From: Moniliella sp. 'wahieum' | Lineage: Eukaryota | Assembly (NCBI GenBank): GCA_003971905.1 | Contig: RSEE01000098.1 | Coordinates: forward strand, 124,001 to 188,000 | Direction of reading: 5' to 3' | Length of the DNA: 64,000 nt | In this document: in pieces, positions 2,258-56,812 of the stretch | Layout of the letters: every line of letters begins with the position of its first letter | Position numbering within the stretch: position 1 is the stretch's first letter | Translations under genes and position numbers: made by a program | The notes under the pieces: generated by a model | The model's database searches: none | The model's input: the letters and a program-made list of their open reading frames with translations, nothing else | What the model was told of the DNA's origin: nothing

Positions 2258-2897
2258 GATGGAGGCACCAGGCGCGAGAGGGTGCTGCGACAAGGTAGAT
2301 AGGAATGCACGCACCAACGCAATCTTTTCTTCGGTGGATTCAGGGTTCTGGAAGCAATCGTCAATCATCGATTAATCATCACATCGACGGGTCGATCATC
2401 GAGATCATCGGGATCATCGATGGCTCAGAGCCCGGCGGGTTTGGAACGTTCATTAATTTATCTCATCCCGGCAATTTCGCCTGGCCTACACCGTCTCTCA
2501 CAGCTGCCTGTGGCCTCTAGCCCACAACAGACGGGCGTGGCAAGAGAGCAGCCGAGAAACATGTCGGGTCGACCATTTGCATCAATCCTTTCCGGTGAAG
2601 GGGGGCATCCGGGTTCACCTTGAACGTTCAACGAACGAACGAACGAGCTAACGAACGTGATGGATGATCCAAGCATCACAAGAGCGAGCTAAGCGCTAAC
2701 AACGAGCAAAACGGAGGGCCAGTACGCCAAGCGGCGGGAGAGGAATCTGGTATGGGTACAATGGGCGCATCGTGCGCAGCGACAATAACAGAGCAAAGGA
2801 GGGGGGGGGGGTACAAGCGAGGTAAAAAGGTCGTCCATGGTTTTTGGTTGTAGTTCAGTGTGGTAAGTGTGCAAAAGAAAAGCTCAATGCTCAAAGC

Positions 2898-5339
2898 TCA
2901 AAGCTTGGCGCGATCAGGCAGGCGGTCGTGGAGGAGAATGACGTTGACCGTGATGTCGTCCCGGTACCGGCGCGATTCCGGGGACGGGATGGCCAACAAC
3001 CCTGCGACGCGCTCGCGGTGGGCACCGCCGAGCGCATTGCGGATCAGGTGGGTGGATAAGTTGTCGTCGGCAAAGGTAAATGTTTGGTCTGCCTTGGAAG
3101 GAGGCGTCAAGGGGTTGCTCCCTGCCTGGGCAGGTGGGGAGGAGGGGGAGACGCCGTGATTGGGACCATGAAGGACATGAGCCAAGAGAGATGTCGTTTT
3201 GACATCCCCTTTCAGCCCAGCCAGGTGGCCAGCAACCAACGCCCCCACCTCGTCGTTGGACAGCATGTCCCACAACCCATCGGTGGCCATGACAATGAAA
3301 CGCAGCTCCTTTCCCCTCGCCCGGTCAGACGAAGGGGTTAAGGGCGGCAAGTGCTGTACCTGGACAAGCGGCTCAGGGGTGACATAAGGCGGGGTACGCA
3401 GCAAACTCGGAATCCGCCGCGCCTCAGCCACACCTCCGGGTACAAACGCATTGTACAGGCGCTCCTGCAGGGACCGATCCCATTTGTACACCGCATCTCC
3501 AAACGCCCGTGTCGGTTCCAGGCCGCCAAGAACCCGGCCACGCATGATGACCTGGTCCGCTTCTTGAGGCGGGTGCTCAGCGCGCATGCGCGCTACCTCG
3601 GACGGGTTCCGGCCGGTCTGGTCTGTCGACAGCGGCTCAAACACCCATGTTTGCGAGCTGGGATTCCAGAACCCACCAATCGCACGCGAGTCGCCCGTAC
3701 AAGCCACATATACGTTTCCCCGTGCCGAGTCAATGTAGGTCAACAACGCACAGGAACCATTCATCGCGGGTCGCAAAGCATCGTACGCAGCTTGTTGTCG
3801 CTCCGCTAGGGTGGGACCAGACGGCGGAGTAGTCCCTCCCAATAATCTGGCAAAGCGGCTGACACTGGTCGCCTCCGTCGGCGGCGCCGAGGACGAAGCG
3901 GATACAATATGCTGCTGGGAGGTGGTGTATTTGACAAGGCAGCCACCAGTAGCTCGTACTCATGCAGCAGCTCGACCGGCGTCGAGCAGATTTCTTTATC
4001 TAAATTGGCAAACGCTTTCCTCAATGCCATCTCGACCAAACTTGGGTCGGCATCAAGGGCAACGTTAGGATAGGTCGGGGCTGCACCGTTGGATGAGAGG
4101 AAGGCTTGCCGCCCAATAGTCCCCCGAGGGATAATGCGCTGGCCCACGGTCTTGGACCTGGGCTCACAAGTGCTGCTGGCCCGCCCCTAGCGGCGGCCAA
4201 CTGAGAATATTCCGCTTGTTGGCGAAAGAGCTTGTCAAGCTCAAGGGCAACGAATGGGATCAGTTTTTGGGCAAGGAGGGTGGACGTGGCGCTCCCTGCA
4301 TGTCCGTCCATGACGGCAAAAAGCAAAGGTCGCCCTTGGTGTTCCCCAAGGAGCTGCTCCAGCGGCAGGCCAGTCCCGCTCAACAATTACCTCGGCGCGC
4401 TTGTCTTCGCAGGGCGCATTGGATGCTACCGAGTTGGTGTCAAACCGAGCCACACGGCAAGCGCCGGGGGGCGGTCGACCTGGGTAGATCGTTCGTGCGA
4501 ACGAAGCACCCGGTCAACCTCATTGGCAGCTAGCGCCGTGACAATCTTGTATCCACCCCCATCTGCACTGGATCGACGCACAGCAAATTGGGTTGGGGCG
4601 GCGGTGGAAAGGGATCGTGAGCCAAACCCGCCGCCGGATCCGGGTGGCGTGAGGTACCAGCCACCGAGTGTGACACATCCAACAACCAGGGCCGCATAGG
4701 CAGGCCAGTGCTGGCGCAAGTGGGCAGCAACAACAGAGTTGTTGGATGGCTTGCGCGGACCAGTGGAGAAGGATCGGTCATGGAGCGCAGCATGACGGAT
4801 GAGCGCTTCGGGGATCTGGAATGTGAGGGGGCGGGACAGGCAGGCTTGCCTGTGCGTGGGTGGGCGGGGCACTGGGCTGGTGGCGCCAGCTGGCTCGGGG
4901 CGGATCGGGGCAACGCGTGAGCGGCGAAGGGCTCGGCTGGGATGGGCAGAGGGCCGACGAGGGAGAGGAGAGCAGGAGTCCTCGCCAGCCGAGTCGGATG
5001 CGGACGAGTCGCTGTCACTGGTCCAGGCGGTGGAGGCAGAGGTCGTGCGGGTGGACAGCGAGCCGCCCACGCCGGCCGAGGGACGCGACATGCGGCCGCG
5101 CCACGGAGGGCACGGCGTGCGCCGGCGCCGACGCCCGGGCCATGGGTGTTGCCACTGGAGTGGGTGTGGGGGCCATGGGCGCGGCGACGCGGAGGCGGCG
5201 GGGGAGGCGACGCAGGGGGGGAGGGCGATGGGTAGGAGTAGGTGTAGGTGTGGGCCAGCCGTGCGTGCGCACGGAGGCGCAGCGCGGTGCGGGCAGCGGC
5301 CGCGGCGGGGCGCAGCGGCGGCGGACGGCGAGGCAGCAT
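2898..5339 (-). CDS. PTC5: Mitochondrial PP2C / pyruvate dehydrogenase phosphatase; several frameshifts; start uncertain (5339 or about 4793)
   Basis: ASNAPCED, FAVMDGHAG, VACTGDSRA, GGLEPTRAFGD, VMATDGLWD, HLIRNALGG, YRDDITV. The Arg/Ala-rich N-terminus from 5339 resembles a mitochondrial presequence. Confidence 0.88.
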
Positions 5340-7231
5340 GGAGGAGCGCTGCGCGCAGACGCTCAGACGCCCAGACAGCCAGGCGAAGCACGCAGGCAGA
5401 CGCTGGCGGTGCGCAAGATGGGCTGCGAGATGGGATGCGAGAGGAGAGGGTACAGGAGATAGCAGAGGAGATGGCAGATGAGATGGTGGTGGTGGGGCAC
5501 CAAAGTTCGAACTGCGGGCGCAGGCCCAGTGCCGAGCGGCGGGCTGCCTGCACGGGGGAAGTGCTGCTGCCGGGGCTGCCCGTCGACACTGGCGCGGTGC
5601 AGCACACGAGAGGCAGCACACACCGCACTCTGCCCGCCGGCTCCGACTTGGTCCGGGCCGACTTGGTGCGCAATAATTAATCACGAATCACTAATCATGA
5701 ATCAGCGGGAATAAGCGCTGCTGGCGTAGGATTGCTTCCCACGCCCTGTCCCATCCCATCTGCCCTCCCTCCGCCCTCGGCTCCGCACCTACGCCAGCGT
5801 CAAGCTTCACACACTTCCCAGCTCCCCAACCACAGCGCGCTCCAACCAGTAGCACGCATGGGGGCCAGTGCCCATCGCAGACAGGGGGTCCGGGCACACA
5901 CGCACCGCGTATCAGTAAAGCCGTTCGATGCCATGGTCACAGGCCCACCCTTTGATACCGACGGGCTGAATCTATCAGCAGAGCCAACAACTTCCTTGCA
6001 AATGGCATGGGGTTTACACAGCAGTAGGGGGGGAACAGTTAATACACCGAATAAGGAGAGCCAGCCGCGGTCGCAGTCTCAACACCCTTTTTTTTGTAAG
6101 CAGCTCGAGCGAAGGCGTCCTGCTGATGCTGCTCGGTGGCGATGCTCCTCTTCTTCCTCTATCAGTGGGTGCCACGAGATGTGGTGGAGTTCACCGCTCC
6201 CTTTCCCAGTGCACAGTGTATATATAAAGGGACCGTCGGAAGGGACCCCCTGGCCACATATATAAATGCAGATAACACATCATATCAAGGAACGCCAAAT
6301 GTATAGTTGAACTCATTGCTGTCATAATGTGTTCAACGGAAACCACACAACATAGTTGCGACCACCGGCCACGTTAGTTCGTTGAACTTCAGTCGTGAGT
6401 AGTTACTAGTTACTGCCCATTCTTCTCTCCCATGTTGCGACAGCGCTTGCACTATTACTGCATCTCGTAAATGTGTTCGCTGTGGTTTATGCGTCCATGG
6501 GAACCACAACAGTAGTACAATCAGATCGCCATTGACCTCGATGGCCGCAGCAGGCGCATGGAAGGGCCAAATGTACGAACCAAGCAGACAAACACGCTTA
6601 TCATGGAGAGATGCCTTACTAACGGCAGGACTGAAAACACATTCCCACTGCCTCTGGCAGATGTAACCCTGTGGTTACACGAGATGGACGGAGCCAAAGT
6701 AGATGGGGCATGATTTGCTCTCCTGCAACGATCCCGTCACTGACAAAGCCTCTTTTCTCAATTTCCAACCTTCTCATGGCTTTTTGGACCCCCCCGCTGG
6801 CTTCTTTTACGGGACGGACCGTGCCCTGTCCTGCTTCAGAGATGGTATTATGTGTTCTCCTGACGGATCACACACGTAATCCCACCGTCTGTGAGATGCC
6901 CCTCTGTTCTATATCTTCCTTGACCCCTTTGTGTATCTTTCTTTCATCACGCGATCTTGTTTCCCGTGCGAATGCTTCTCCTTCCTCTGGTATAGTATAT
7001 AGGGCGCCATTCCATGCATGCAGCCTGAATGGATACCTGAATGAATACCACAAAACAGCATCCCAAGTAAGTCCCCCCTTCATCTCCTCTAGAATTACCC
7101 CTTGGCGGGCAATACCTCCCTCTCTTCCCATGCGAGGTCAAAAAGCTACCCCTTTTCTCCTCAAAGCAATCGAGAGGTTGCTATATGCAGGACCGAGATG
7201 GGCTCTCAGCCCGTTAGTACTAGGCATTGAA

Positions 7232-8480: not shown

Positions 8481-10024
8481 GCGCTGCCATCACCACGTGG
8501 ATTGCACTGTTTACCACATCAAGGTCCGTTCAGGCCGCCGGACCCATGCATGCCCTGGTCGCACGGGGGGGCTGTGGTGTGTACACTGCATCTGTGGCTG
8601 GTTGAGGGACAGCCACTGTAGGGCCAAACTGCCCAGGTACTAATATCGACTGGACTCACCCGCCCGCGTCCCACCCCCTATCGCAGCAGGCGGTGCTTTA
8701 GGCCTTAGGACCAATGAGGATGAGTGGAGGACTGTGGGTGGTTTTGTATGGCGTCCTAAGGGGGGGGTTGGTTACTGTGGCTCTGAAAGAGGATGCATGA
8801 CGCAAGGCCGGGCCTGTGGACAAAATGGGGACGGTGGGGCAAGAGGGATCGGTGGTGCGAAGGATGATGGTCTGCGTCGTCTGGGATGAATGTCAAGTAT
8901 ACGACCCCGCCAGGATTTCTTACAAAACCACATCCACATGTTTCCTCTCTCGGTCCTCATGGCAACTTGAGTAGACTATAGGCCAAGACGTCTTATCATT
9001 TGACCTCCGAAGTCTGCGCGTGTGTATACCCAGGCTTCAATGTTAGAACCCCTGTCTCCTCTAGGTGTGCCGCATAAGACTTAGACTTAGACCTCAACCA
9101 CCGCCGTCGCGATTGCATTGCTCTTGATCACCAGAGGTTCATCACCCTACCCCTTGGGTTCCTCCGGCCTTACAGACTATGCCGCGTGGGGTATAATATG
9201 GGGCCTGTTGGAGCATTCGGAGGATCAGTGATGGCGGTGGGTCGCTTGTTGCGGGACTCGGGAACACAGGAGGCGACGCTTGCGTAATGCGGGAGGATGG
9301 GATAGGCGTTTGGAACGCCGGGGGGAGCGGTGCGCTGTGCTTCGACCGTTTTGGAAGAGGCAGAAGGCGACAAGGACGCCACGCCCACAGTACCGCCGGG
9401 ACGCATGAGCCATGAAGCTTGAAGCTTGAAGGGCGTGTGTTGTGGTGCAGGAAAAGACTGCTGGTTGGAGGGGAAGAATAGAATCACACCATTGGTGGGA
9501 GGGGTGTGGTGAGATTGGTGACGGAGAGGAGAGCGTCTGGGGGGTGGCGGCGAGCGGTGTGTGCTACGCCATGGCATCAGCATTCTTACCTGGGGGGTGC
9601 TGAATCTGGGCTAATGCAGAATGGGGCTTAGTGTGTGTGGTGCTCCGCGGGCGACGCGGAGGCAGGGGCAGAGGGGCGTGGTGCAGGGCGCAAGCCGAGG
9701 CGCTGAGGCTGCGTGCTGAGGCTCAGCCCTGAGGCTGAGCGCGCAGGCTGAGCCGCGCTGAGCGCCGCACGGGGGCAGCCAGTTGCCCCGCGCAGCGTCC
9801 CGCCGCGCCAGAGCATGTTCTGTCTGAGCACCGCGTCTCAGTGCGGCGTGTGGGCGCGTGACATGCATGACCCATCACGCGTGGCGCCCACCGCCCGCCG
9901 GCCAGCGAACCGACAGCCGCTCGCGCTCGCTCCCGCACCAGCTGCCTCTCCTGGGCGCGCAGTCGCCCAGTCTCCCTCGGCGTATGCACCCAGCACTGCC
10001 CCCCCGCCGCCGCCCTGACGCAGC

Positions 10025-10061
10025 CATGCATCATGCATCATGCATCATGCATCATGCATCA
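10025..10061. repeat. (CATGCAT)5 heptamer tandem repeat
   Basis: Five perfect units upstream of the MIPC synthase gene. Confidence 0.95.
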
Positions 10062-10404: not shown

Positions 10405-11665
10405 ATGCGAAGACAAGGACAAGGACAAGCGCCCACCCCCCGCCACCTCCTCCTCGGTCCCGCCCGCCTCCGGCCGCGCGCGCTGCCACAGCCACCGCTG
10501 TCCTGGCCATTTGCGTTCTCCTCCTCCTGGGAACGATCATCGTGCTCGGCACCGTCTGGGCCTTCTTCCACGCCCCCTCCAGCGCCTGCCTATCCCCAGC
10601 CGAACTCAGCCTGGTAGACCCCTCCTTTCATTGGACCGACCCACCACGATCGCACGACCGGCACGAACCCCCTCCGCCTCTGCCTCCGCCTCTGCCTCCG
10701 CCTCCGCCTCTCGCCTCGGCTGCCCCGCCCCAACCCCCGCCCCGCCCCCCACAGACTGGGTTCCCACCTCGTCCGATAGCGAGTACCTGGGCCACTTTGT
10801 CCCCGGGATGCACAATGGCACGCGTCCCCACCGCGCGGGGGAGAAGATCCCGCGCCTGATTCACCAGACGTGGAAGACAGCGTCGGTGCCGGCCAAATGG
10901 AAGGCGAACCCACAAGGTTGTCGCGCCATGCACCCCGACTACGACTATATCCTCTGGACCGACCAGGATGCGCGCGCGTTCATCCAGGCGGAGTACGCTT
11001 GGTTCTTGCCCACGTTTGATGGGTACCGGTACAACATCCAACGTGCCGATGCGATTCGGTACTTTGTCCTGCACCGGTACGGCGGGATCTACATGGACTT
11101 GGACATGGGCTGTTCCCGCCCCATGGATCCGCTGTTGCAATTCGAAGTGGTCTTGCCGCAGACCAAGCCGGTAGGCGTATCGAATGACCTGATGCTCGCT
11201 GCGCCCGGCCATGCATTCATGACGCATGCCATCCACCTGCTCGCCCAGAGCAGTAAGAATTACCTGATTCCCTATGCGACCGTCATGTTCTCCACGGGCC
11301 CCATGTTCCTCAGCGGAGCGTATGGTCAATTTGCGCGGCTGCATGGCACAGCGTCCCCGTCCACCCCCTCCGACCCTGAACGGGGCAAGACGGGCGTGCG
11401 CGTCCTGCCCCAAATCTTGTATGGCAAGCTACAGAACCCACCGCCGGGACTGCACACCCAGCCCGGCGCGTTCTACAGCCACTTTTACGGCTCCTCGTGG
11501 CACGCCGGCGACGCGAGCTTGATCAAGCTCCTGGGAAACAGCGGATGGTTCGTCATGGCCATCGGACTGGTCGTCGTGGGCATGTGGGTCTACCGTGCGT
11601 ACCGCAGGCCCGGCCCACCCGGTCTACCAAGAGTGTCGGCTCGAAGTAAGATGTGCACCCCTTAA
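10405..11665 (+). CDS. SUR1: Mannosyl-phosphorylinositol-ceramide synthase (GT32, SUR1/CSH1-like); frameshifts in the N-terminal part
   Basis: KIPRLIHQTWK, NIQRADAIRYFVLHRYGGIYMDLD (DxD), PVGVSNDLM, VMFSTGPMFLS, GSSWH; N-terminal and C-terminal hydrophobic segments. Confidence 0.9.
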
Positions 11666-12504
11666 GGCCTAACCCCTAACCCGTTAGCGCGGTAGGCATG
11701 ACAACACTTAATTCAACCAACGCCCGTGATGAATTTTCTTTTTTTTTCGCTTTGCCTTTGCCCCACCTGCACTGTATCCCCACTTCCTCCCCTCCTCCTT
11801 TCCCAGTCATACATATGTGCACATCTCAACCGCATATCTTGTTCCTAACCAGCAGGCTGGACCCACCGCACACAGTAAGGGAGCCCCATTCTAGTCAAGG
11901 CAAGGTCATGGGGGGGGGGCAGGTCATCGGATGGGATGCATTGCCAGCCAAAGCGATGAGATGAATCCTTGAATCCTCAGCTTAATCCGCCATGCCCGCC
12001 TGATCCAGATCCACATGCAGTGCTACGTCCCCACCGCAGACAGGAGCTGGATGACAGACTGTGTTGTAGTTCCTCGCTACCGGTCCTGCCGTCGCTTTCT
12101 CTCTTTCTGCATGGTGCGATACTTACGTGTGCAAACAGTGCAGGAACGGTACGTTGAGTACGTTGAGTGCAGCGCCCTAATCCTAAACGTCCTAGCCGAA
12201 AAAAGATGCCCTTTTCCTGCCAAGGAAGGACCTGGCTTGCCATTCCCGTACCATACCGTACCGTACCGTACCGTTCCCAGCTGCCAAAGCCCCACTGGGT
12301 TGCTATGTCCTGTCCTGTCCTGTCCATCGCCATCTACTGCGCATGTCCGACGTAGCCCGGCCTGGGTCGGCGGGTCCCATGGGAGAGGGAAGAGAATGAT
12401 CTTGAGGGACTGGCGTCACTGCCACTGCCCATACCAATGCCAATGCCAATGCCAAAGCCTGGGGGATCATGTGCGCGTCCTCTCATCCAGCAAGGACAGC
12501 TCGT

Positions 12505-12965: not shown

Positions 12966-13747
12966 CGTCAGGCTACAGGCTTAGGCGAGCGGTGGTGGGA
13001 AGCTACGCCAGGCAGCCCCGAACGACAGCTGCCCCCTGGGGGGGGGGCGCACGCCGGATTACAATGCGCTTCTCGGCACGGCGCCAGTGTGTGCCCGTGC
13101 CAGCGCCAGCAAAGCGGCTTACCTCACTTGAACATTGCACTCCCACCCTCTGTTTCGCCCTGGGGTGGTCACGTGCCTGCCAGGGCGGGAGTGCGCCTCG
13201 ATGGGCGTCTCCATTCCATTGTCCCTATCGTCATCTCCCAAGGCACCACCCTGCTCACCACCCAGACCGTCGCCACCACGTTCGAGCTGCGCAGGCACTT
13301 GCACATTCCCTTGGTCCTTGGCCTGCTCGGTGGTTCGACATGTGCGGCCGCGCGTGAAGCTTCCAGATGCTGGTCATGACGGCGAAACAGATGCTGATGC
13401 GCCTCGACATGGGCTCTTTGGTCACGCGCCCTTCGTCCTGCCCCACACATCTCTTGCCAACCTACACGGGATTGAATATTGAGTCCTGAACCTGATTACT
13501 GAGTACTGATTGGTGACGCTTGCCAGCCTCGTGGCTGTGCGCGTGGCATACAACGTGTGCGTAGGCGAGAATGGAGGCATGGATGGGCGGAGCAGAAGGG
13601 GAGAAGAGCAGGGTACGGGTCGAGTGGCCAAGGTGGATGAACGGACAACAGGAGCAGGAGGAGAGGGTATCCAGTTAGGAAAACAACCCAATCCAAACAA
13701 GGGAGTGGCATGACCCAAGCGGAAACAGTATTCGCTCCAAAAAAGAA

Positions 13748-13830: not shown

Positions 13831-14819
13831 TTGATTGAGAAGAATCAAATTGTAGAGATTATGTACAAGGGGTGGCGGAATCAATTCCTATGTTCCTTCT
13901 CAGAAGCAACACATGTGACAGCAGGGCCAGAAGATGACAGATGACGATGGCGATGACATGCGACAGACAGACTGGCGCTGCATGATGCATGCATGACATG
14001 TGACAAGGGTGGTCAAAGCCGCCGGGTGCGCTGCGCGCTGAGGCTGAGTTGCTTCTTCGGAGAACAGGCGACTGGGGACGCGAGGGCAAAGGGGAAAAGG
14101 GGGGAAAGCAGTTACTCAGGCCTGGGAAGCTGGAAGGCACCAAGGCACAGAATGCACATCCTGCTCATGGCGGCTGACGCGTTGACGTGTGGGCATCGAC
14201 GTGAGGGTTGGGCCGCTGGGGCTGGCCTGGGCGGGGCCGACGCAGCTGGGAAACAGCGTCCAACACGAGCCAGTGCCCAGGCAGTCCACCCAGCTATCAA
14301 GGAAGCAAGCGGTGGCTGGCGTGTGGCTGGCCAGACGCCTCATCCGCCGGTCTTTGGGCGTGTCTTTTCTTCTTCTTCTTCGCCCGGCAGGCCATCGCCC
14401 CCCTATAGTCGCCCTATAGTCGCCCCTATACCCGCAGGGGTCACGCGTCACGCGTAACGCGCGTCGTCTGCCTTGCAGCGGCAAGCAACGCGTGGGAGCA
14501 GCGCTAACTAGTAAATGGACAATGCCCGCCCCAGTGCCACTGTCCACAGCCGGTTGGGGCTAGGGTTGCCGCACCTGTCCACTGTGCTTTCGGCTTGCCG
14601 CATGAACGTTTCAACTCGGCCGCCTCGCCGCCCCGCGCCACGCACACTCGTAGCTGCCCCCGTGCCTGTCGCCACCTCTCCGTATCACCCCCATCACCCC
14701 GATCACCACCACTCCCTTCCCTCTGGCCAGCTCAGCCCGTGTGGTGCTTCTTCTTTCCATCGCCACAGCATTCATCCCACCACCACCACTCCCATCCCCA
14801 CCACCACCACTCCCTTCCT

Positions 14820-14960: not shown

Positions 14961-19411
<4,451 letters not shown>

Positions 19412-34745: not shown

Positions 34746-35521
34746 CCCCGACCTCGGACCCCGGGCCCCGGGCGCCCATCGTTCTTCTTTGGTTGACGTC
34801 TTGGGGGGGGGCTGGCAGTACTCAGTACACTCAGTACTCAGTACTCAGTCGCCCTGTCACGTCACGCGTCACCTGGCATATGTGCATGTCCTGTTGTCTC
34901 GTAACGATTTCTTGTACACAGTAACTAGTAACATCCCAATCAAAAGCTCATGGCGATGCATCGGTCTTGGGTCTCCCCTTCGCTGCTTATTGGTTTGTCG
35001 CCTGTCCCATCGATCCCTCTCTTGTCGGCTTTGCAACGGACGTTCTCTCTCTTTTGCGAAAGGAGGTGTAGATGGCCACGTTCAGGGGGCGGGGCAGGGG
35101 CTGGGAATGCGATGGTCACCGACGGTGGGCACGCTAAAGTATGGTATGGGAAAGAAAGGAGGAAGCGTGGTGCGTCACAATTGGTGCAGTGAGAGTCGAA
35201 GGGACAGGGGGGGCGATCTGGAAACTGAGGGGAGAGGATGATGCATGGCTATCTACAAAGCAGAGAGAGAGGTATACTTGTGCGATATACTATGCAGGGA
35301 ATGACTTCCTTCCTTCCTTGCCTACTGTCCCAATAGAACAGCTATTTTTGCGTCCACCTCGCACCAACGCCCCGACTAACCTTTCCGCCCACCTCCTCCC
35401 TCTTGAAGCTCGACGAGCATGACGGCGCCTGGCAACCCATCGTCTTGCGCTCTTCGTCCGACGCTGATCCATCCCGTCATGCTCCCCCGGGGAGCAACAC
35501 ATGTGTATACTTCCGTGCTGC

Positions 35522-43379: not shown

Positions 43380-44888
43380 AGCGTTAAGTCGGGCTGGGCC
43401 CGGGACTGCAAGTGTCCCACCTCGTAAAGTGATCGATAGGCCGTTGTGGCAAATATATGGTGAATACCGCGCATTACGCATTATACGCAGTTCTTCACGC
43501 ATATAGTCTGTTGCATATGATAGATGCCGCCTCTCTGAATACGAGGGTACGCCCGTTGATGCTTGTAACCTCGTCGAGCGCGAAGATCATTACTATAGGG
43601 TACTGCGAGAGGTTACAACTCGTGGGGGAAATGATCAGTAGGATAATGTGGTCAGGCGGTCAGGCACACAGTATGTGGAGTTGACCAGCATACCTTGTCG
43701 TGTTGCACCGTGGCTGTTGCGAGTCGCGCTACCCTATTAGTTAAGAGTTTTTTTTGTTTTAGGCGTAGCCTGCGCCGCGCGTCCTATCCATGTAACCTTG
43801 TGCCAATTGTAAGCTGCTCGTGTGGTAGACACTGCTGGGGCATCTCTGTTTTTCCCTACCACCGCCACCTCTTCGCTCCACTCGTTACCTCGTTCTCGCT
43901 CATCTGCTTAGTCTGGTGGCTCAGACCATGCCGTCTGCCTGTGTCGTAGTACGTCGCAACAGTAGAGCTATTATCGAGCCGGATGCAAAAGGGGAACCAG
44001 CTGTATCCGTATGGAAGATGGACCTGCATTCTCACAACAGCTTTTCTGTCATATCTTCCACGTCTTTCTTTATTGGGGGTGTGTGCTTCACTGCGGCTTG
44101 ACTCGCTTCACTGCTGTCCTTTTTCCGTGGAAGAATGTCAGCTCTTGATCAAGAGGGGACATGTCGCTTACGCCGATGCGCTGAGGGTGTTGGTGCCCGT
44201 GCTGGCGATAGCGCCCGCAGGGGCAAAGTTGCTGATAACACACTACCAATAGTGAGTACTGAGCGTGGTTGGTTGGGGATGGCCGATCGATCGATAGTGA
44301 ACGTTGAACGTAGTGTAGTCGGGAGAGAGGATCGGAGAGAGGATGATGGATGATGCGGCCGCTTTCTGTCCCAACCGCTTTGGTGCGATGGAAGAATGGA
44401 AGAGGAGAGGAGGGCGGATTGTTGTGTGCTCGGTGGCAACACTGGCGCTGTGCTTGCGCTGAGGTGGTATGGTATATGGCCATGGGAGTGAGACAGGCCG
44501 AGCGGGCCGGCGTGTGTCAGATGCGCCGGTGAAATTTGAAATGTGTGAAACGGGAAACTGGACAGCCCAACGGGACAACGCGTCGCCAGCAACCCTAGGG
44601 CAGGCAGTTGTATTTGCGCGGCTGCCCCCGCGCTGGCCAGCTGGGGCGGGCGGCGGGCGAGTTTGATTGGGAGATGGGGGATGGGGACCACCACCACAAC
44701 GAGCACCGCACAAGCCGCGCCCGCACCCGCACCACCCGCACCCGCACCCGACCCGCCCGACACGCGCTCGGTTGGGGTGCGCAGGTGCGGACGCGCGGGT
44801 GTTGTGAGCCCCGCGCACGCACATATTGACGCGGGGCCTCATCAACCCACCCCCCCCCCCCACCACCACCGCGACGAGGATGGCCACG

Positions 44889-45682: not shown

Positions 45683-45782
45683 ATCAGCATCAGCATCAGC
45701 ATCCGCATCAGCATCCGCATCCGCATCAACATCCGCATCCGCATCCGCATCCGCATCCGCAGCCACATACACATACACATAC
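45683..45782. repeat. Compound hexamer microsatellite (ATCAGC/ATCCGC/ATACAC)
   Basis: Read directly. Confidence 0.9.
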
Positions 45783-48642: not shown

Positions 48643-50953
48643 GGCGTCAGGCACGGCAGCCGGCTGGAACAGCTCATGCCGCAGGGAGGCCAAGAACAAG
48701 GCGGAGGGGAGGAGCGCGGCGCGTGAGCTTGAAGCTTGAAGTTTGGAGCTTGAAGACTCTCTCTCCGTTGGCAACCTGAGGAATGGGCGCTGGGCCGGGA
48801 CGAGCTAGGGTGGGTGTGGAGGAAGAGATGAGAGACGGGAGAGGATTGAATATTCGCAGGACCCACGGCACTTGCCACCTCTGCTCCTGCCCACGGAGCT
48901 GCCCTCTCCGCCCAGGGCTCACGCGTCACGCGGCACCCACACACTTTCTGACAGAGGGTGCGCCACGAACGCGAGCAAGCGGCTGGCTCGGACAGGCTCG
49001 GAGGCAGTGCCTGTTCGGTGCCCGTCGCCCGCGCTGGGCTGGGGCCTAGCGGCGCAACGGGCAGGGGACCGTGTGCGTATGCGATGCACGTGGCTAGTGG
49101 GAGTGGCTAGGGGCGCTGCAATGGCAGGGCTGCATCCTGCCCCCTGCCCACGCTGCTCCAGCTCTCCAGATCCGGTATAGCCGGCACCTGGCATGGTGCA
49201 TCGCACCCGCCGCGGCTGGGAGGGGACGACTGCTGAGGTGAGGCCTGAGGCCTGAGGCCACTGAGGCGCTGGGGGACAAGGCGGACAAGGTGAGATCTCA
49301 CCCTCCGATCCCAGGGAAAAGTTTTCAGCTAGTGAGACTGGGAAAGCCAGTGCGGGGCGTGCAGCACACCGGTCCCCGCCCGGCCTTCTCGCACCGCAGC
49401 AGCGAGACCGGGCGAGACAGGCACGGCGGGGGTGTGGAAGCATCAGTCTGAGATCTGAGTACGCCCCACTGAGCCTCAGGCTTCAGCTGAAGCTTCAGCA
49501 GCGGACACATCGGAGATCGGAGATAGTCGAGAGAGAACGGCGGGGGGCGTGTGATGCGATGGAGGCAAACAACGTGCAATCGACCATCTCTCTCGCCATC
49601 CGCTCGCGTTTTTTTCAACTCAAAGCTTAAAGCTTACGCTTAGATTGGTTTGGATTTTGTATGGCTTGAAGCTTGAAGCTTGAAGCTTGACAGTTTAGCC
49701 GCCCGTTTGCGTTGCGCACGGGGGCAGCATCTGCCAGATCCCATTCCCTTCGCTGCATTGGCTTCAGCCAACGGTCTCTCCCCTTTCTTCCCATCCCTTG
49801 CATGCTTGACCCACCACTCAGCCACCAGTGTGGTAGGACATTCCGGGTCGCAAGTGCCATGTGAGCTCCTTAGCGATACTTGTCACGGGCGCGGCCGCCG
49901 CCATTGGGCCCGCCCGCGGGGGCGGCTAGGGGTACAACTATCCCTTTAGTAGAGGTCCGAAACAGGGCGAGAGTCACGGCGTTTACTTCTTTATTGGGAT
50001 GATTGGTGTATCCGGGCCGAACTAGGGACACAGTCGGAGGGGCCTCTGGCGTACTAGCAGAGACGGCTGCAAGTGTGACAAGGCTAACGTATGCAACCGG
50101 CCTGAGCGGTAATAAAACGTAGTAACGTGTCGTTTGCGGTGCTGAGGACGCCGGGAAGGGGCAGCGGCGCACAACCTTGCCAGAGCTGTGGAGCTGGACT
50201 GGGACTGGAGGCGGCGTGGCTGGAAGTGAACCCACCCCGCGGACTAGATTGGTTTCGACGTGGCACGAACAGGGCACACGCGACTTGGTTTTGGACAAGA
50301 AGCTGAGGGGATGCGGGAGCCAGCGCCCGTCAGACAACAGATATATTGACCGTCCTACAACATATTCAATGAACGCATATGAGGCGGGGGGAAAGGAAAA
50401 TGATGCTTTGGAGGGGGAGCAAAAGACGCTACTCCCGAGCGAGAGAACAGGTGGCGCATGTGGAAACCTGCAACCAGCGTGAAGTTATACTGCTTGCAGG
50501 GAGCGTGCAGCCGGTAATGCCCGAAAAGACCTGAGGACATCTCTGTTGGCGGTGCTTCAGCTTGGCCATAAGGCATTCGGTATCAAATGTCGAATGGCGA
50601 GCAGCGGCGCAGCGAGAAGAGGCCCTCAGGGCTGAGTTTTCTAGATGACGATGTACCTATAGCCCGTGCATGAATCCTACAAATGGTTCCGGAGTGGGAA
50701 TGTGAAGGAGAGATAATGTGTTGCTGAAGAGGGACGATCTGTTGTGGTGCATTAGAATTGCCACTCCATCATATTCCCATCAAGGGAGAGGAGGACAATG
50801 CGGAGCAAAAAGAGCAAGAGATAGAACAAGAGAGGATAGACAAAAAGACAAAGAGACGGGTCCAGCTTCCAGCGTCAAGTGGGGGACCCGTTCTCTTTTA
50901 AGCATTAAATCATCAGTGCCCGAAATGTGGTTCCAGCCACAACTATTGGGTAC

Positions 50954-52520: not shown

Positions 52521-54160
52521 GATGGTCGTTAGTGGAAGGCCGTTGGGCGAGGAGGAGGGGGGGGGGGATGTGATGTGGGTGGTGAAAAGAAAAGATGAGA
52601 AGCAGGCAAAATTGCGAGTTTAGTAGGATTTGGTTCCCGAGATGGAAGGCGCACACTCACATCTCGCAGTCGCTAGCACATGTGTACGTGTACAGATCAG
52701 AGGAACTAAACGCATGGCCCTTGCTCGCAGCCACGCCGGCCAAACGCTCTGGAACACATGAGCATTTGCATCTCTCCCCGAGGATTGATCGAGGAGCGAC
52801 TGCGAGCACCTGGTGCGCGAGCCCCACAAAAGCGCCCCTCTGTGCCGAATGCCTACATGAACTTCTGGGTATCTGTCTTGCTCGTCGAGTGCGCCATGTG
52901 GTGCGTCGAGGCGAGCCTGTGAGGTGCGAGGAGGCTATAAGGCCGAGCAGGCAGGGTGGACTTTGCCTGCTCTCACGTGGTATGCTGGTTTGATAGTGCC
53001 GCTGCCAGTAACCTTAACGATGTCGTGGCGAGGAGGAGGGGGTGGGGGGGGGGCGGGTCAGCGCAACGTTTCAGATGCCAATCTACTGTGCGGGCTGTGG
53101 GACGCGCTGTGGAGGGGACGAGAGAGGGGGCGCAAAGGCAGCAGACCCAGTGGTGGATCGTAACACGCGGAACACATGGTGTACTGCCAGTGCTCCCCAC
53201 CTCGGATCTCAGAATCGAAGACGAGCCGCCCCGCAGGGTTCTCTCCTGTGCTGAGTTACTAGTGCCTAGTGTCGACACGTTGACATGGCATGTGGCTGAG
53301 CCTCCTCTGCGCGATGGCAACCATGCGTGCGGCTGCAATTAAAATTGGCAGCGGATCAAGAGGCACTGGCGCTGTGTGCTGCCCGCCATATGTTGTTCCG
53401 TACCACATGCGCACTGCTCGCACGAGCGAGTCGCGCGAGGAGCAGAATGCATGTTGCATCGCCTCCCTCGGCCATCCATCCCAGGCCACCCCAGGCCATC
53501 CCGCATGGTCTACCCGGGCTCCCACTCGCGGTGGAAAAATATTACGCCCGAAAGGGGTTCATCGACATTGAGCGCATTGAGCACAACCTAATTCGACCGC
53601 AATCTTCATATGGATCTGAGCTAGCGTCTCACTGTGATGAGCTGTGCTGCTGGCGAGACATGCGCCTGTGCCACATTCAAAACGTTCAATTCGCATCGAT
53701 CTCATCAATGTGTTGACTAGCTCTGGACTTGGGGTTCACATTCACACACGGCATGAGCGTGGAGCGCCACCAGCCGTTTCCTGAGCACGAAGACGAGTGG
53801 CCCAGTCCTAGTCTCAGGCCTCACTAGTCACTACTACAGTCGCAGTCACATGCATCGCATGTGCCCCCCCCCCCCCACAGAGGAAAAGTGAAGAAAACGT
53901 CCGACTTTTGAGCATCTGCGGCAGCGCAGCGAGTCGAGGGTATGAGAAAAAGCAAACTATTGCCTCAATAATATAGGAGGACGCGATGGACGGCGGTGGG
54001 TGGGTGGTGGGGGGTTAAACCAGTCTGTTGGAGTATGGTGTGGCATGTGGCCTGTGGCCTGTGACATACATGACATGTGATGCATGTGACACTACTTGGC
54101 GTGGTGCAAGATGCGTGATGCTATGAAGCTTGAAGCTTGATCGATGATCGGCCACCACTG

Positions 54161-54311
54161 GTCACCGGTTACCGGTAACCGGTAATTAATTACCGTAGCC
54201 GGAACTGGCTACCGAGTTCCGAGACACACGCCCACGGGATTGGTTACCGGTTACCGGCCGTTACCGGCCAGTTACCGCTTACCGGTTACCGCTTGCGCTT
54301 ACCGCTTACCG
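54161..54311. repeat. Degenerate TTACCGG/TTACCGC repeat cluster with palindromic segments
   Basis: GTCACCGGTTACCGGTAACCGGTAATTAATTACCG at 54161-54195 and several TTACCG units at 54244-54311. Confidence 0.85.
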
Positions 54312-54920
54312 TCGCGTCTCGCTAACCTTTCCTCTTCAGTCTCCCTGTTGCATTCAAGCTCAGAACTAGCCGCGTCAGGAATTTACATGTTACAAGAAGC
54401 GATCTCTGACTGCTTCCGTCCGGCACAGGTGAGCTTCCTGCTCTCTCTCTTTCTGTTCTCTTCCTACTTCTGGCAGGAGCATACAAGAAAGCTATTCTCA
54501 TGTTTCCGCCCTGCACAGTGCAATCGTCCTTAGCTTCGTAGCGTAGCTAATACTTCTCAGTTAAACGTGTCAACGGACAACTGCGAAAATGGGCTCTCAC
54601 CGGAGTGACCTATCATCGTGTTCGCCCATCGATCGCCCAGTGTATACTAATAGTGCTTCGCCCTAGCCCCATTCTTTCAAGGGTAGCTGGACCTTAATAC
54701 GTTCTAGACCTCCTGTTTCCCCCCCCTGTTTGTCTATTCCTTTTCGTTCTCCGTTGAGCCAGCTTGGAATGATGTCTTCTCCGTCTCCGAGGTGTATATC
54801 TCCTCCTCTCCACTCGAAAAATATGATCCTCATCTTTTTCCCAACCTCATCATCTGTTAAAAATAGAGCCCCGCCTCTGGTTGACCACTCCTCTTAACTA
54901 CGCCACGTCTCATTGTTGCG

Positions 54921-54990
54921 TCCATTTCATTGACAGAGCTTAAGGCTGGGACAGGGGAACGCTACGTCTAAACCTAACCGGTTCTTCGTT
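54921..54990 (-). mobile_element. Fragment matching the downstream (3') non-coding region of the 7.2-8.5 kb element
   Basis: 54921-54957 matches 7232-7268 at 35/37 nt, followed by CTAAACCTAACCG vs CTAAACCGAACCG. Confidence 0.7.
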
Positions 54991-55234
54991 GTTCTACGTT
55001 TGGGTACCGACTACGGACGCTTTAGCGTTCTTGAGAGCAGTGGCGGATATGTGAATTCAGTAGACAAACCACCTTGCGTGGCTCCAATTTGCCATTCAAG
55101 GGTTTCTGCCCAAACAAACGATGCGCTGACAGATGTGTGGGGTTCCCGTCACCTCGGGTCCCACACCATGACTGAAGAGGTACTAGTATGAGAAGCGGCA
55201 AAGATATCGCTTAAATCCACATTACTACTAGGAA

Positions 55235-55760
55235 AGCGATGCGTACTGACCATCGAGTGGTGAGACCAAGAGGTTCCTGAGGATCAGGAATGAAGCGAGA
55301 CCACACTGGTATACGAGAGTGTCGCACCGCCTTTCGAAGGCACGGAAAAGGTTCTGCTACGATTGTTAGACCAAGCAACAGGAGAGAATGCCGCGACAAG
55401 AACGACAATTCCTGTGATCGCACCTTAGAACCTTTCTGTCTTCCCCCTGGTTATGACGACGCGAGGATACACCACCCTAAGGGCGAGTAAGATGAGTACG
55501 ACGGAGCAACACACTGGATGAAACTTAATGTGTCTTAATGGAGATGGTTGACCGCTCGCGGATGTCTGCCACGCTCATTGATGTCCACGTGCGCTATTGC
55601 CTCTCCGGTTTGGAACCGAATGGCGAACGCAAGAGGGTCCATACCTTCTGGCGGCTTCTCTGGTTTCTGAACGAGTTTTCGACACCACAAAAAAAACACG
55701 CTGGATGAGCAGGTCGGTTTAGGCATAGCATTTCATTGACCAAGTCTCAACCCTGCAGAT
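55235..55760 (+). mobile_element. Second degenerate copy of the RLE-type non-LTR element (endonuclease region and 3' end), plus strand; left limit approximate
   Basis: Collinear nucleotide similarity to the reverse complement of about 7270-7790. Examples: TTCCCCCTGGTTATGACGACGCGAGGA (FPLVMTTRG vs FPLVLTTRG), GATCAGGAATG..GACCACAC, GCGACAAGAACG, GGATGTCT.CCACG.TCAT..ATGTCCAC. Confidence 0.75.
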
Positions 55761-56812
55761 GGTATACTATGACTGCAACAGAGATCTAGAGGGATATAAG
55801 AAACGATTCTTGCGCGCCGGACTCGCTCATGTCATCCTATGTTTACTGACAGCTCTCGTACCCGCCCAATTAGGAGGCCAATGGTGTATGTTTCCCAGCA
55901 GATAAGCCCCCTTTCCGCACCCCTAGCTCCCCGCAATTGTATTACAACTGTGGCGAATATTAGGAAGGTTGGATATCGCATTGCCGGTTCCGCTTACCAC
56001 GGCTGAATCGTGTCTCCCGTGGGGGTATACTGTGGCTGTGTGTGGCTGCAGCCCACAACCCACGTATACTCTGTCTGATCCCAGAAAGGCGAGAAATAAT
56101 ACGGAAAACGTCACCGCGTCATGACGGATTGCCATTTTGGGCGGCTTCTATTATTAGCTTTTCTGGACCATATCCTGAGCTGGTCCACCACACGAGCGCT
56201 GTCCCTTCCAACGCCGCGCGAGCCTCTTCGGCTCCCCTTGTTTGTACTATGCCGGGGCTAAAATCCGTGGCCCTCGGAGAAGGGGCAGCAGAGAGAGAGC
56301 ACAGCGACTGCAAACAAGAGAGGGGGTGTTTTTGGATCCGCTCTGAGATCTAGATCTGATCAATGATCCGAATGTGTTGCGATACACCTATTAAGAGTAC
56401 GCCTGACCAATGACCTACCTGGGCTTCGGGCGCCAGGCCCCAGGCCGCGTCCTACGAAGATGGGGTGATGTTCCATGAGCGGTGACCGGAACCAAGCCAC
56501 AGTGGCGCTGTGCCCCGAGAGCGGTGATGATGCGTGACACAATCGGCAGCGGAGGCGGGCACGAGGGCGCAGGCGGGCGTGGGTCCCGTCGGCGTCTGCC
56601 GCGCCACCAGCCCAAACTGGCCCGCTTGGATCCGGCCCGGGCGCAGACGGCCGAGAGCTGGCCCGCAGCTGACACACGCCCAGCTCACGCGTCATGCCGC
56701 CGCCTCGCCGCGCCCGTCCACACGCGCTTATAAGCCGCCCGTCCCAGCCACCCCGGCCTTGTCCTGCCCGCCTCGCCCTCCGCCCCTCCACCCCTCCCTT
56801 GGCCTGCACACC

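Follow-up and report, generated by a model that had tools for sequence, protein, structure and literature searches.

The non-coding DNA of a 64-kb stretch from a smut-related fungus (the whole of the DNA analysed, referred to as the window) carries short arrays that follow one rule: a T-N-A triplet, a 4-bp palindrome of nearly any sequence and the same T-N-A again, with a 7-bp period. This grammar is real and rigid, is confined to the lineage and to non-coding DNA, and includes in-phase units with unrelated palindromes. It is stronger than an initial annotation of the same DNA had put it. A literature search found no description of heptamers built from T-N-A and a palindrome.

The T-N-A/palindrome rule

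The window has 60 occurrences of the 10-mer made of T-N-A, a 4-bp palindrome and the same T-N-A, corresponding to 47–49 independent loci (49 maximal period-7 runs in a full scan, 47 arrays when phase-collapsed; Table 1). The chance level was 1.9, 1.5 and 2.2 positions in sets of 40, 30 and 40 dinucleotide shuffles, and third- and fifth-order Markov models gave 1.35 and 4.35. The autocorrelation of TGA/TCA triplets has its maximum at 7 bp (113 pairs versus 56.5 ± 7.7 in 100 dinucleotide shuffles, z = 7.3), and every other distance between 3 and 30 bp in the window stays at or below z = 3.0. Collapsing in-phase TGA/TCA runs left 88 arrays compared to 54.2 ± 7.1 in shuffles (maximum 73), and 37 of these have a palindromic spacer versus 3.3 ± 1.7 expected (shuffle maximum 9). 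The observation made in the initial annotation is confirmed. The 51 collapsed arrays with a non-palindromic spacer equal the expectation of about 51 (88 − 37 versus 54.2 − 3.3). The 7-bp excess is entirely the palindromic-spacer class, and "in-phase" arrays without a palindrome are at chance; three of the latter had been singled out earlier and are present, but they belong to a class that is not enriched.

All 29 arrays previously listed were located, and their 78 triplets are all T-N-A at the positions and with the spacers given; the list covers about half of the loci in the full scan. The triplet had been written as T(G/C)A, which describes 71 of the 78. The other seven are TAA or TTA (14455, 31197, 31204, 31211, 54169, 54176 and 54183), so the rule is T-N-A, the form that the annotation carried in brackets in its title. 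Its statement that the triplet and spacing are conserved, not a repeat unit, holds for the triplet and the 7-bp period but leaves out the palindromy of the spacer, which is conserved also.

Base specificity was assessed from the fraction of collapsed w3-N4-w3 arrays with a palindromic spacer. This fraction was 32/66 for TCA/TGA, 10/19 for TAA/TTA and 16/88 for CCA/TGG, compared to 71/1546 (4.6%) for the other 29 triplet classes. The A-N-T frame is weakly raised (6 positions versus 1.8 expected), and the C-N-G (7 versus 8.6) and G-N-C (7 versus 7.5) frames are at chance. Palindromic fillers of 2, 4, 6 and 8 bp were counted 6, 60, 1 and 1 times, versus 8.4, 2.2, 0.55 and 0.28 expected. The middle base is the same on both sides of the palindrome in 47 pairs and complementary in 7; the complementary form is a perfect 10-bp palindrome and constitutes a minor class with 9 positions in the window. 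T-N-A triplets, 4-bp palindromes and mostly identical N are favoured, and the identity of the palindrome is free. Fifteen of the 16 4-bp palindromes are seen as spacers, and their usage follows background 4-bp palindrome usage (χ2 = 17.4, df = 15, p = 0.29), which argues for templating rather than recognition.

The number of copies per locus ranges from 1.4 to 5.3 without a preferred value, and 31 of the 49 loci have fewer than 2 copies. Array edges are sharp, and the 7-bp period past the first mismatch is at background (immediate stop, 63% versus 72%). Four arrays are composites of adjoining in-phase units with palindromes that differ at 4 of 4 bases, a configuration absent from 100 shuffles; such unrelated palindromes are beyond the reach of slippage and point mutation. 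Period-7 runs of length 3, 4, 5 and 6 number 8, 4, 9 and 10, and a match of at least 5 bases is found in 37 of 49 runs. Run lengths often exceed 3, so the flank next to a palindrome frequently matches one half of it.

Genomic placement and lineage restriction

A 3-base periodicity signal was used as the coding proxy in place of gene models. Five of the 49 loci fall where this signal exceeds 2, which covers 34% of the window, and 1 of 49 falls where it exceeds 3, which covers 20%. The loci are clustered, with 23 of 48 gaps shorter than 300 bp versus 12.0 ± 2.6 expected. The longest array (10025–10061) lies 57 bp upstream of a glycosyltransferase ORF, one cluster (24366–25704) is upstream of a RhoGEF gene, and another cluster occupies 53813–54394.

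The natural-sequence control was 610 kb of unrelated metagenome contigs. Palindromic spacers account for 27/478 (5.6%) in these contigs versus 37/80 (46%) in the window, and heptamer arrays bearing a palindrome account for 4/65 versus 13/21. The rule is lineage-specific and missing from the 610-kb control. The closest named protein relatives are from Tilletia and Tilletiaria, at 59–61% identity, in rough agreement with an Ustilago-like source.

Table 1. Loci of the T-N-A/palindrome rule in the window. Strand is unassigned throughout, and loci come from the period-7 scan unless a source is given.
Position	Feature	Source
2621..2630	TGAACGTTCA, complementary-N minor class, perfect 10-bp palindrome	listed-triplet check and minor-class count
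2688..2699	GCTAAGCGCTAA = TAA-GCGC-TAA, 1.7 copies	
5800..5809	TCA-AGCT-TCA, minimal 10-mer	
6400..6414	(TAGTTAC)2.1 = TTA-CTAG-TTA	
8698..8709	TTA-GGCC-TTA-GG	
9413..9431	(TGAAGCT)2.7	
10025..10061	(CATGCAT)5.3 = TCA-TGCA units, longest array	
11663..11672	TAA-GGCC-TAA, minimal 10-mer	
13471..13482	TGA-ATAT-TGA, opens run of seven TGA triplets (13473–13516)	
13497..13509	TACTGAGTACTGA = TGA-GTAC-TGA	
13994..14005	TGA-CATG-TGA-CA	
14440..14455	(GTCACGC)2.3 = TCA-CGCG units, then TAA-CGCG	
14505..14514	TAA-CTAG-TAA, minimal 10-mer	
24366..24377	TTA-TCGA-TTA, first in cluster 24366–25704	
24878..24888	TGA-TCGA-TGA	
24944..24957	(ACGTTGA)2.0	
25040..25064	(CACATGT)3.6 = TCA-CATG units	
25256..25270	(AGATCTG)2.1, TCA before (N flipped)	
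25361..25380	composite TGA-GTAC-TGA-ACGT-TCA, two unrelated in-phase palindromes	
25693..25704	TGA-CGCG-TGA	
26997..27008	TGA-AGCT-TGA-AG	
28678..28690	TCA-CATG-TCA-CAT	
31193..31216	(TCGATAA)3.4 = TAA-TCGA units	
31227..31236	TGA-GATC-TGA, minimal 10-mer	
31383..31393	TCA-ACGT-TCA	
32012..32027	(TCACATG)2.3	
34829..34849	(ACTCAGT)3.0 = TCA-GTAC units	
34860..34872	TCA-CGCG-TCA	
34920..34932	TAA-CTAG-TAA	
38432..38441	TGA-TGCA-TGA, minimal 10-mer	
40691..40702	TCA-TTAA-TCA	
44253..44263	TGA-GTAC-TGA	
44298..44311	(TGAACGT)2.0	
44530..44542	TGA-AATT-TGA	
48726..48741	(AGCTTGA)2.3	
48919..48932	(TCACGCG)2.0	
49239..49259	(TGAGGCC)3.0	
49447..49459	TGA-GATC-TGA	
49664..49690	(GCTTGAA)3.9 = TGA-AGCT units; gave pattern for metagenome scan	
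53813..53833	composite TCA-GGCC-TCA-CTAG-TCA-CTA, two unrelated in-phase palindromes; first in cluster 53813–54394	
54071..54080	TGA-CATG-TGA, minimal 10-mer	
54124..54150	composite TGA-AGCT-TGA-AGCT-TGA-TCGA-TGA-TCG	
54162..54192	TCA-CCGG-TTA-CCGG-TAA-CCGG-TAA-TTAA-TTA: frame constant, middle N variable, composite with TTAA	
54242..54257	(GGTTACC)2.3	
54279..54291	TTA-CCGG-TTA-CCG	
54383..54394	TTA-CATG-TTA-CA	
56685..56694	TCA-CGCG-TCA, minimal 10-mer	
63039..63048	TGA-CGCG-TGA, minimal 10-mer	

Origin of the arrays

Our best guess, offered tentatively, is that the arrays derive from recurrent 7-bp insertions at T-N-A that duplicate the target and add a 4-bp palindrome in the manner of a transposon footprint, with slippage amplifying some of the units. 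The insertion event, its enzyme and the palindrome's source are what we infer from a single 64-kb window. DNA would be opened at T-N-A within accessible non-coding DNA, and the break would be resealed with the T-N-A doubled and a 4-bp palindrome between the copies. The new T-N-A in every scar would be a target for further hits, and these would build arrays in one phase, at times with another palindrome per unit; ordinary replication slippage may then move the copy number of identical units up or down. By footprint logic, the target-site duplication (TSD) would impose translational symmetry, and two nucleotides kept from each inverted end would impose two-fold symmetry. Points in favour of insertion are the direct duplication with its identical N, the T-N-A base specificity, the rigid 4-bp filler, the arbitrary palindrome, the composites, the sharp ends, the clustering away from coding-like DNA and the lineage specificity. 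The excess over expectation is 58.5 for perfect copies and about 41 for copies with one violation, and this surplus of perfect over decayed copies, which also counts for insertion, marks the scars as young or maintained.

PIF/Harbinger elements, mPing among them, are known to target T-N-A whatever its middle base. The available part of PMC4561436 describes a 3-bp mPing TSD with a free middle base, excision that gives 5′ TSD-derived overhangs, and retention of both TSDs in only about 14% of mismatched-TSD constructs. PIF/Harbinger excision (mPing/Pong, Tourist MITEs) is reported there as usually precise, which counts against insertion, and a 4-bp palindromic filler is not described in that part. 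Mariner and Stowaway excision footprints keep the TSD and short pieces of the element ends, and the Tc1/mariner/Stowaway form resembles the window loci in its short direct target duplication around a fixed-length, two-fold-symmetric filler (PMC4561436, same part). Cut-and-paste footprints are also like the loci in lying in non-coding DNA near genes, where repeat visits can build arrays. They differ in that the window target is T-N-A, not TA, and the filler is any of 15 palindromes, whereas a footprint should keep the fixed tips of its resident element. No T-N-A-flanked element with inverted ends was found in the 64 kb beyond the arrays and one chance-level 7-bp case, and no transposase domain, PIF/Harbinger or other, was found in 148 ORFs of gene-poor stretches or in the 30 longest ORFs. 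Also counted against insertion are the long period-7 matches, where T-N-A with random filler predicts mostly 3-base matches for single units, and the lack of enrichment in the window for a 5-bp duplication in its simple hairpin or P-nucleotide variants. The hAT (Ac/Ds) target consensus is A-N-T at the junction, not T-N-A; the window shows just a weak rise in the A-N-T frame and no variable P-nucleotide lengths. The hAT7 elements of rust fungi, with 7-bp TSDs, are a 7-bp TSD lineage within Basidiomycota (PMC12730594, partial text).

Hairpin-assisted microsatellites are unlikely to be the whole explanation. Heptamers of the form xy-TNA-y′x′ are the most self-complementary odd-length units, and looped-out copies or unprocessed flaps could fold with a T-N-A loop and evade repair, so that units arise and expand through slippage without a special enzyme. 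Folding predictions for arrays of at least 3 units place T-N-A in a 3-base loop (−6.2 to −9.8 kcal/mol, with z-scores of −2.9 and −3.3 in 2 of 5 arrays tested), perfect multi-copy arrays show a roughly geometric copy-number fall-off, and period-8 and period-9 arrays also lean toward T-N-A with a 4-bp palindrome (10/16 at period 9). Fold-back template switching in rad27-deleted yeast gives palindrome extension with a short duplication, and resembles the window in its self-complementary units and in insertions that pair direct duplication with inverted copying (PMC5677150, available part). Those events start at existing palindromes in any frame and with variable length, unlike the window loci, which are fixed at T...A, 4 and 7. 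Hairpin folding is also at odds with the chance-level counts of the better-folding G/C-closed frames and with the more stable 9-base form (T-N-A with a 6-bp palindrome), which is unenriched. Slippage could not create the sharp-ended loci with fewer than 2 copies or the unrelated palindromes of the composites, and the bias is missing in other genomes. The heptamer-armed hairpins of cyanobacterial STRR and Xanthomonas GGGAATC repeats share a surplus of 7-base tandem units in non-coding DNA (PMC4692102, partial text) but are bacterial, long inverted array pairs of one fixed unit; the window has a fungal host, each unit is self-complementary and units vary between loci.

We are similarly doubtful of some other templated replication or repair error that needs no transposase-like enzyme and became frequent once a gene for repair or flap processing changed in the lineage. 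A two-step template switch, for example, could copy a few opposite-strand bases and then T-N-A again. The match of palindrome half to flank points to local templating, short tandem duplications are unusually abundant in the non-coding DNA (39, 14, 3 and 2 perfect arrays at periods 6, 7, 8 and 9 versus 0.07, 0.10, 0.03 and 0 expected), and copying events that are partly inverted and partly direct have been documented (PMC5677150, available part). Against this, no switch path was found that gives the same N over complementary N without prior homology, 10-bp palindromes being the minor class, and the T...A-only frames and 4-bp-only palindromes would be left unexplained.

Recognition of T-N-A half-sites 7 bp apart in promoters and elsewhere in gene flanks, whether by one general chromatin or DNA-binding factor or by a family of dimeric ones, is improbable. 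The fixed triplet and phase and the location near gene ends are compatible with binding, the surplus of perfect copies could also reflect purifying selection, and HSF/HSE arrays likewise place a short half-site at fixed phase in gene flanks. HSE spacers are free in sequence; the window is enriched solely for palindromic spacers, and its half-sites are direct, not alternating. Direct half-site repeats need no spacer symmetry, non-palindromic T-N-A pairs are at chance and there is no preferred copy number. A base reader would fix the sequence of the spacer, not its symmetry alone, and we know of no mode of base recognition that demands any palindrome. The initial annotation had proposed a multimerising HSF-like factor on phased T(G/C)A half-sites. 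An excess restricted to palindromic spacers, with nearly any palindrome accepted, speaks for a templated mutational origin and against such a grammar.

Chance, or selective reading of repeat-rich sequence, retains virtually no probability: the earlier examples were chosen by eye and a total of 181 tandem-repeat rows spanning many periods lie in the window, but this reading is refuted by unbiased scans under four null models, the collapsed-array test and the metagenome control.

The lineage-specific mutational or modification process that the initial annotation had also offered fits better than its binding proposal, given the absence of the rule from 610 kb of other sequence, the non-coding clusters, the sharp ends and the composites. 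The repeats look like scars left by a DNA-cutting or DNA-copying process that is still undescribed, not a protein-binding code.

The heptamer rule in the window and in control DNA

All results rest on the 64-kb window and on control DNA from elsewhere. Each of the 29 arrays (78 triplets) listed in the initial annotation is present at its position with the spacers described; the T(G/C)A form proposed there holds for 71 of the 78 triplets, the other 7 being TAA/TTA. Distances between TGA/TCA pairs peak at 7 bp as claimed (113 vs 56.5 ± 7.7 in 100 dinucleotide shuffles, z = 7.3), and the next-ranking distances in the window autocorrelation are multiples of 3, or 21. After in-phase runs were collapsed, 88 arrays remained vs 54.2 ± 7.1 expected, and 37 of them had palindromic spacers vs 3.3 ± 1.7 (maximum of 9 in 100 shuffles of the window), so both the phase and the palindromic spacers outlast the test that the initial annotation had set. 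The array excess of 34 equals the palindromic-spacer excess, and collapsed non-palindromic T(G/C)A-N4-T(G/C)A arrays are not enriched in the window (~51 vs ~51 expected). The full pattern, T-N-A plus a 4-bp palindrome plus the same T-N-A, occurs at 60 positions in the window. Its expected count is 1.9, 1.5, and 2.2 from shuffles, 1.35 from a Markov-3 model, and 4.35 from a Markov-5 model. These counts confirm the phased T-N-A/palindrome heptamers.

The share of palindromic N4 spacers was determined for all 32 strand-collapsed w3-N4-w3 triplet classes in the window. Spacers are palindromic in 32 of 66 TCA/TGA arrays and in 10 of 19 TAA/TTA arrays, and all four bases are represented at the middle position of T-N-A among the palindromic arrays. 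The 29 classes other than these two and CCA/TGG together give 71 of 1546 (4.6%; ~6.7% expected from composition). Beyond TCA/TGA and TAA/TTA, only CCA/TGG is raised, with palindromic spacers in 16 of 88 arrays (~6 expected); it occupies 17 positions in the window (e.g. 1494, 12919, 31504, 54041) and could come from the same process acting on near-cognate triplets or from a distinct G+C-rich effect. With a palindrome as filler, the A-N-T frame is barely raised (6 positions vs 1.8 expected), and the C-N-G and G-N-C frames are at chance in the window (7 vs 8.6 and 7 vs 7.5, respectively). Palindromic fillers of 2, 6, and 8 bp are not enriched (6, 1, and 1 vs 8.4, 0.55, and 0.28 expected), and 4 bp is the only filler palindrome length that fits the rule. 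The N of the two flanking triplets is identical in 47 pairs and complementary in 7, which identifies the structure as a direct repeat around a palindrome rather than a 10-bp palindrome. Spacers use 15 of the 16 possible palindromes with no dominant tip sequence, at the background frequencies of 4-bp palindromes in non-coding-like DNA (χ2 = 17.4, df = 15, p = 0.29).

The rule can be restated as a unit consisting of a 6-bp palindrome, A-N4-T, and one free base. Such palindrome-plus-one units make up 13 of the 21 perfect period-7 arrays, 12 of these having the A...T form, and this constraint on the unit sequence distinguishes them from an ordinary heptanucleotide microsatellite. Palindromic units are found in 0 of 44 perfect period-6 arrays in the window. 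Of the four classes of hexamer palindrome, only A...T is in excess in the window (276 vs 164). In 78 of these 276 sites T occupies −2 and A occupies +2, where ~4% is expected. Palindromes of 8 bp with the form TA, 4-bp palindrome, TA were also observed (10 vs 2.4 expected); their palindromes are varied, two of the ten sites are TATATATA, and the class may be the same rule minus the middle base.

Metagenome contigs scanned for (TGAAGCT)3.4 served as a natural-sequence control. Arrays of at least 3.4 copies are widespread in these contigs (at least 120 loci, G+C 30%–70%). The control set was 610 kb of loci of at least 3 kb among the matches listed, with AGCT spacers left out. The spacer is palindromic in 27 of 478 control T-N-A-N4-T-N-A arrays (5.6%) vs 37 of 80 in the window (46%), and 4 of 65 perfect heptamer arrays in the control contigs contain a 6-bp palindrome vs 13 of 21 in the window. 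The near absence of the rule from the control makes it a property of this genome and not of DNA or heptamer repeats generally. Most of the metagenome loci, among the matches listed, lack the rule, and hints of it occur in three (L038, L060, and L063). L038 appears positive with 7 loci. Its positions 1–20024 are a tandem array with ~5.6-kb units, in which the repeated gene encodes an AAA_11/UvrD-like helicase domain and TGA-AGCT, TGA-GATC, and TAA-CCGG units lie at matching places in successive copies; the heptamer copies of this tandem gene array are therefore not independent. In L060 the array at 5335 runs on in phase into a TGA-AATT-TGA unit.

Anatomy and genomic setting of the loci

A full scan of the window identified 49 maximal period-7 runs. 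The length matched at period 7 is 3 bases in 8 runs, 4 in 4, 5 in 9, 6 in 10, 7–13 in 12, and 14–30 in 6. At least two full copies are present in 18 runs and 1.4–1.9 copies in the other 31, and the loci retain two T-N-A copies and 4 bp. Run ends are sharp: an immediate stop follows the first mismatch in 63% vs 72% for background, there is no periodic continuation beyond background, and the flanks match the periodic extension at 4.1–4.6 of 14 bases vs 3.4 in the control. The sharp ends and near-control flanks rule out the short loci as point-mutated remnants of long arrays. Four arrays are composite, with units in one phase whose palindromes differ at all four bases, and none arose in 100 shuffles. 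Through 54162–54192 the frame is constant and N is C, T, A, and A in turn. The excess over expectation is 58.5 for perfect copies and ~41 for copies with one violation; most violations affect either N=N (18 vs 5.1) or the outer pair of the palindrome (16 vs 6.7). A rough steady-state estimate from these counts would put new 7-bp insertions of this form at ~1% of the rate of substitution per base. The loci are young or maintained.

In 37 of the 49 runs at least 5 bases match at period 7, so that one half of the palindrome is identical to the flank. When 47 loci were oriented to TGA/TAA, a further TGA-like triplet often lay in phase on one side (T in 20, G in 24, A in 18) and G immediately preceded the first triplet in 23. 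Extension lengths by side (25 vs 15) are not clearly one-sided.

Related sequence features accompany the loci. Perfect period-8 and period-9 arrays often have T-N-A adjoining a 4-bp palindrome plus 1–2 extra bases, and a manual count from the listing found both elements in 10 of 16 period-9 arrays. Within 24860–24970 a CGTTGA(C)-like word recurs at least 8 times, spaced variably at 7–10 bp; this array overlaps one heptamer locus and looks decayed or indel-ridden. A telomere-like CCTAACC/CCCTAA stretch (11663–11682) directly follows a TAA-GGCC-TAA unit. GCTGAGG/CCTCAGC-type words recur as longer palindromes (9703–9765, 24986–25015, and 49468–49501), and GCTGAAGCTTCAGC at 49485–49498 is a perfect 14-bp palindrome built on TGA-AGCT-TCA.

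Coordinates of composite arrays, locus clusters, related repeats, and other features of the window
Feature	Position	Description
Composite array	25364	GTAC/ACGT
Composite array	53814	GGCC/CTAG
Composite array	54131	AGCT/TCGA
Composite array	54176	CCGG/TTAA
Main cluster	24366-25704	upstream of RhoGEF gene
Main cluster	48726-49690	
Main cluster	53813-54394	
TA-palindrome-TA sites	6219, 7215, 11024, 20401, 20494, 29065, 31791, 33142, 54170, 55181	
Period-8/-9 array examples	20164-20183, 31557-31576, 12149-12168, 25054-25073	
Hexamer arrays	14819-14884, 45658-45761, and 37 other places	including (TCCCCA)11 and ~17 copies of CGCATC
Group III hybrid histidine kinase	16140-19408	HAMP, HisKA, and receiver domains
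Inverted repeat I1	37675-38077	two 82-nt arms, 96% complementary, 239 bp apart
tRNA-Trp (CCA)	37675-37755	one I1 arm; other arm an inverted near-copy with no ARAGORN call

The window has a G+C content of 59.3%, and in addition to the histidine kinase it encodes RhoGEF, PP2C, TauD, mitochondrial carrier, protein kinase, and Ras-family GTPase genes of fungal type. The best named relatives of the TauD ORF are from Tilletia and Tilletiaria (59–61% identity), and two contig proteins match at 83–85%. These matches place the source among the basidiomycetes, probably in Ustilaginomycotina, with no close relative annotated. Coding DNA was approximated by 3-base periodicity, with which the known genes light up; a codon-usage map was dropped as too weak because it called only 7% coding. 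By the periodicity proxy the loci avoid coding DNA, as the initial annotation had noticed: the part with a signal >2 makes up 34% of the window and holds 5 of the 49, and the part with a signal >3 makes up 20% and holds 1. The loci are also clustered, with 23 of 48 gaps shorter than 300 bp where random placement in low-signal DNA gives 12.0 ± 2.6. Outside the main clusters, one locus (10025–10061) lies just before a glycosyltransferase ORF and others (44253–44542) are located after TauD. Three stretches (23900–33600, 43500–51000, and 52600–57000) lack 3-base periodicity, and their ORFs of at least 80 aa have no Pfam match. Over four scanned stretches 2 of 148 ORFs match Pfam, both belonging to one Ras-family gene (~38440–39284), and the gene content of the window is unusually low for a smut-like fungus. 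Regions with heptamer loci are rich in other short tandem duplications, and hexamer arrays are over-represented above heptamers (39 perfect vs 0.07 expected). On the minus strand at 62575–62660, ARAGORN also calls a tRNA-like sequence whose anticodon has four bases (cgca).

Origin of the loci

The top-ranked explanation, held tentatively, is a T-N-A-targeted 7-bp insertion followed by slippage. The proposed mechanism would start with a T-N-A-specific cut in accessible DNA; resealing would then duplicate the T-N-A target and add a 4-base palindrome. Every scar would supply a fresh T-N-A for another event, which would explain the in-phase composite arrays, and a cut-and-reseal event of this kind would account for the features of the loci described above. 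Slippage surely alters the copy number of units that already exist. The combination of translational symmetry (T-N-A with the same N) and two-fold symmetry (the palindrome) in a rigid 3 + 4 arrangement suggests the logic of a cut-and-paste footprint, which by analogy would consist of a target-site duplication, 2 nt from each inverted end, and the second target-site duplication. Any sequence is accepted as long as it is symmetrical, which points to templating rather than base reading. The frequent identity of half of the palindrome with the flank hints at local copying, and this is a problem for the insertion mechanism.

DNA-transposon footprints resemble the loci in that the target is duplicated on both sides of a filler (same N in 47 pairs vs complementary N in 7; 60 positions vs ~2), but element tips are fixed and the filler here is arbitrary (15 of 16 palindromes at background frequencies). 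Junctions of hAT elements are framed by A-N-T, the frame that is barely raised in the window (6 vs 1.8). Rust fungi have hAT elements with 7-bp target-site duplications, according to passages of PMC12730594. Mariner/Stowaway footprints keep the target-site duplication and short bits of the element ends, and Ac/Ds footprints contain palindromes derived from flanking DNA via hairpins, as passages of PMC4561436 describe. The same passages give mPing, of the PIF/Harbinger group, a 3-bp target-site duplication with a free middle base, as in T-N-A, and 5′ overhangs derived from it. They describe PIF/Harbinger excision as mostly precise; precise excision restores a single T-N-A, whereas two copies and 4 bp remain here.

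No transposase was found by Pfam among 178 ORFs of the window, and the heptamer arrays were the only matches when the window was scanned for 11-bp inverted ends flanked by T-N-A. A relaxed inverted-end scan of the window gave a single MITE candidate at 7068–7274 (201 bp, 7-bp inverted ends GTCCCCC/GGGGGAC, TAA on both sides), which is no more than chance would give (0.6 expected) and is unconvincing as an element. I1, the 82-bp inverted repeat, is a pair of tRNA-like sequences and was rejected as a transposon on that ground. Models combining a 5-bp duplication with P nucleotides (none, 1 nt, other side, and both sides) were also discarded, being at about background outside array overlaps.

Hairpin-driven slippage alone is unlikely to have produced the loci. 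Arrays of at least 3 units do fold in silico with a T-N-A triloop, but G/C-closed frames are at chance, the more stable 9-base version is not enriched, and heptamer arrays of other genomes lack the bias (4 of 65). Slippage of this kind cannot make sharp-ended loci of fewer than 2 copies, and the unrelated palindromes within composite arrays also argue against it.

Another templated repair error is comparably improbable. In rad27-deleted yeast, fold-back template switching gives palindrome extension plus duplication, as described in passages of PMC5677150, and the 37 of 49 runs with a palindrome half that repeats the flank could reflect copying of this type. However, the same-N product and the fixed frame could not be derived from fold-back template switching; frame and length are fixed here, and the complementary-N product that it is expected to give is the minor class.

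Protein binding of phased half-sites, the HSF-like reading of the initial annotation, is less probable still. A binding grammar should enrich T-N-A pairs for any spacer, and an HSE-like array should keep a fixed phase independent of the spacer, but T-N-A pairs are enriched with palindromic spacers only. No candidate gene for an array-binding protein is present in the 64-kb window. The other reading in the initial annotation, a lineage-specific mutational or modification process, is favored over binding. Chance is a practically negligible explanation.

Significance for the lineage

A full-text literature search that included the array sequences found no description of T-N-A-plus-palindrome heptamers in fungi; its coverage of subscription journals is thin and absence is unproven. 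As a class the loci are akin to known kinds, namely footprint-like scars and self-complementary microsatellites, and there is a fair chance that they mark a new mutational process. Recurrence in promoters alone is no ground for annotating such arrays as regulatory motifs. If the loci are read by a protein instead, symmetry would be recognized without sequence, which would be equally unusual.

It is possible, if doubtful, that this lineage has an active, undescribed DNA-breaking or copying activity, maybe a cryptic or domesticated T-N-A-specific (PIF/Harbinger-like) nuclease with unusual end-joining. Such an activity would write rigid 7-bp scars, each a duplicated T-N-A and a random 4-bp palindrome, in accessible non-coding DNA at ~1 per kb and so seed self-complementary microsatellites. 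If true, the loci would be a clean lineage-specific mutational signature with a fixed geometry (3 + 4 bp), a fixed target (T-N-A), and a random palindrome, a combination beyond textbook slippage, P-nucleotide addition, and transposon footprints. They would show the birth of a microsatellite class and not just its expansion, mark at the sequence level where chromatin is open or breaks concentrate in these fungi, and point to an enzyme worth finding.
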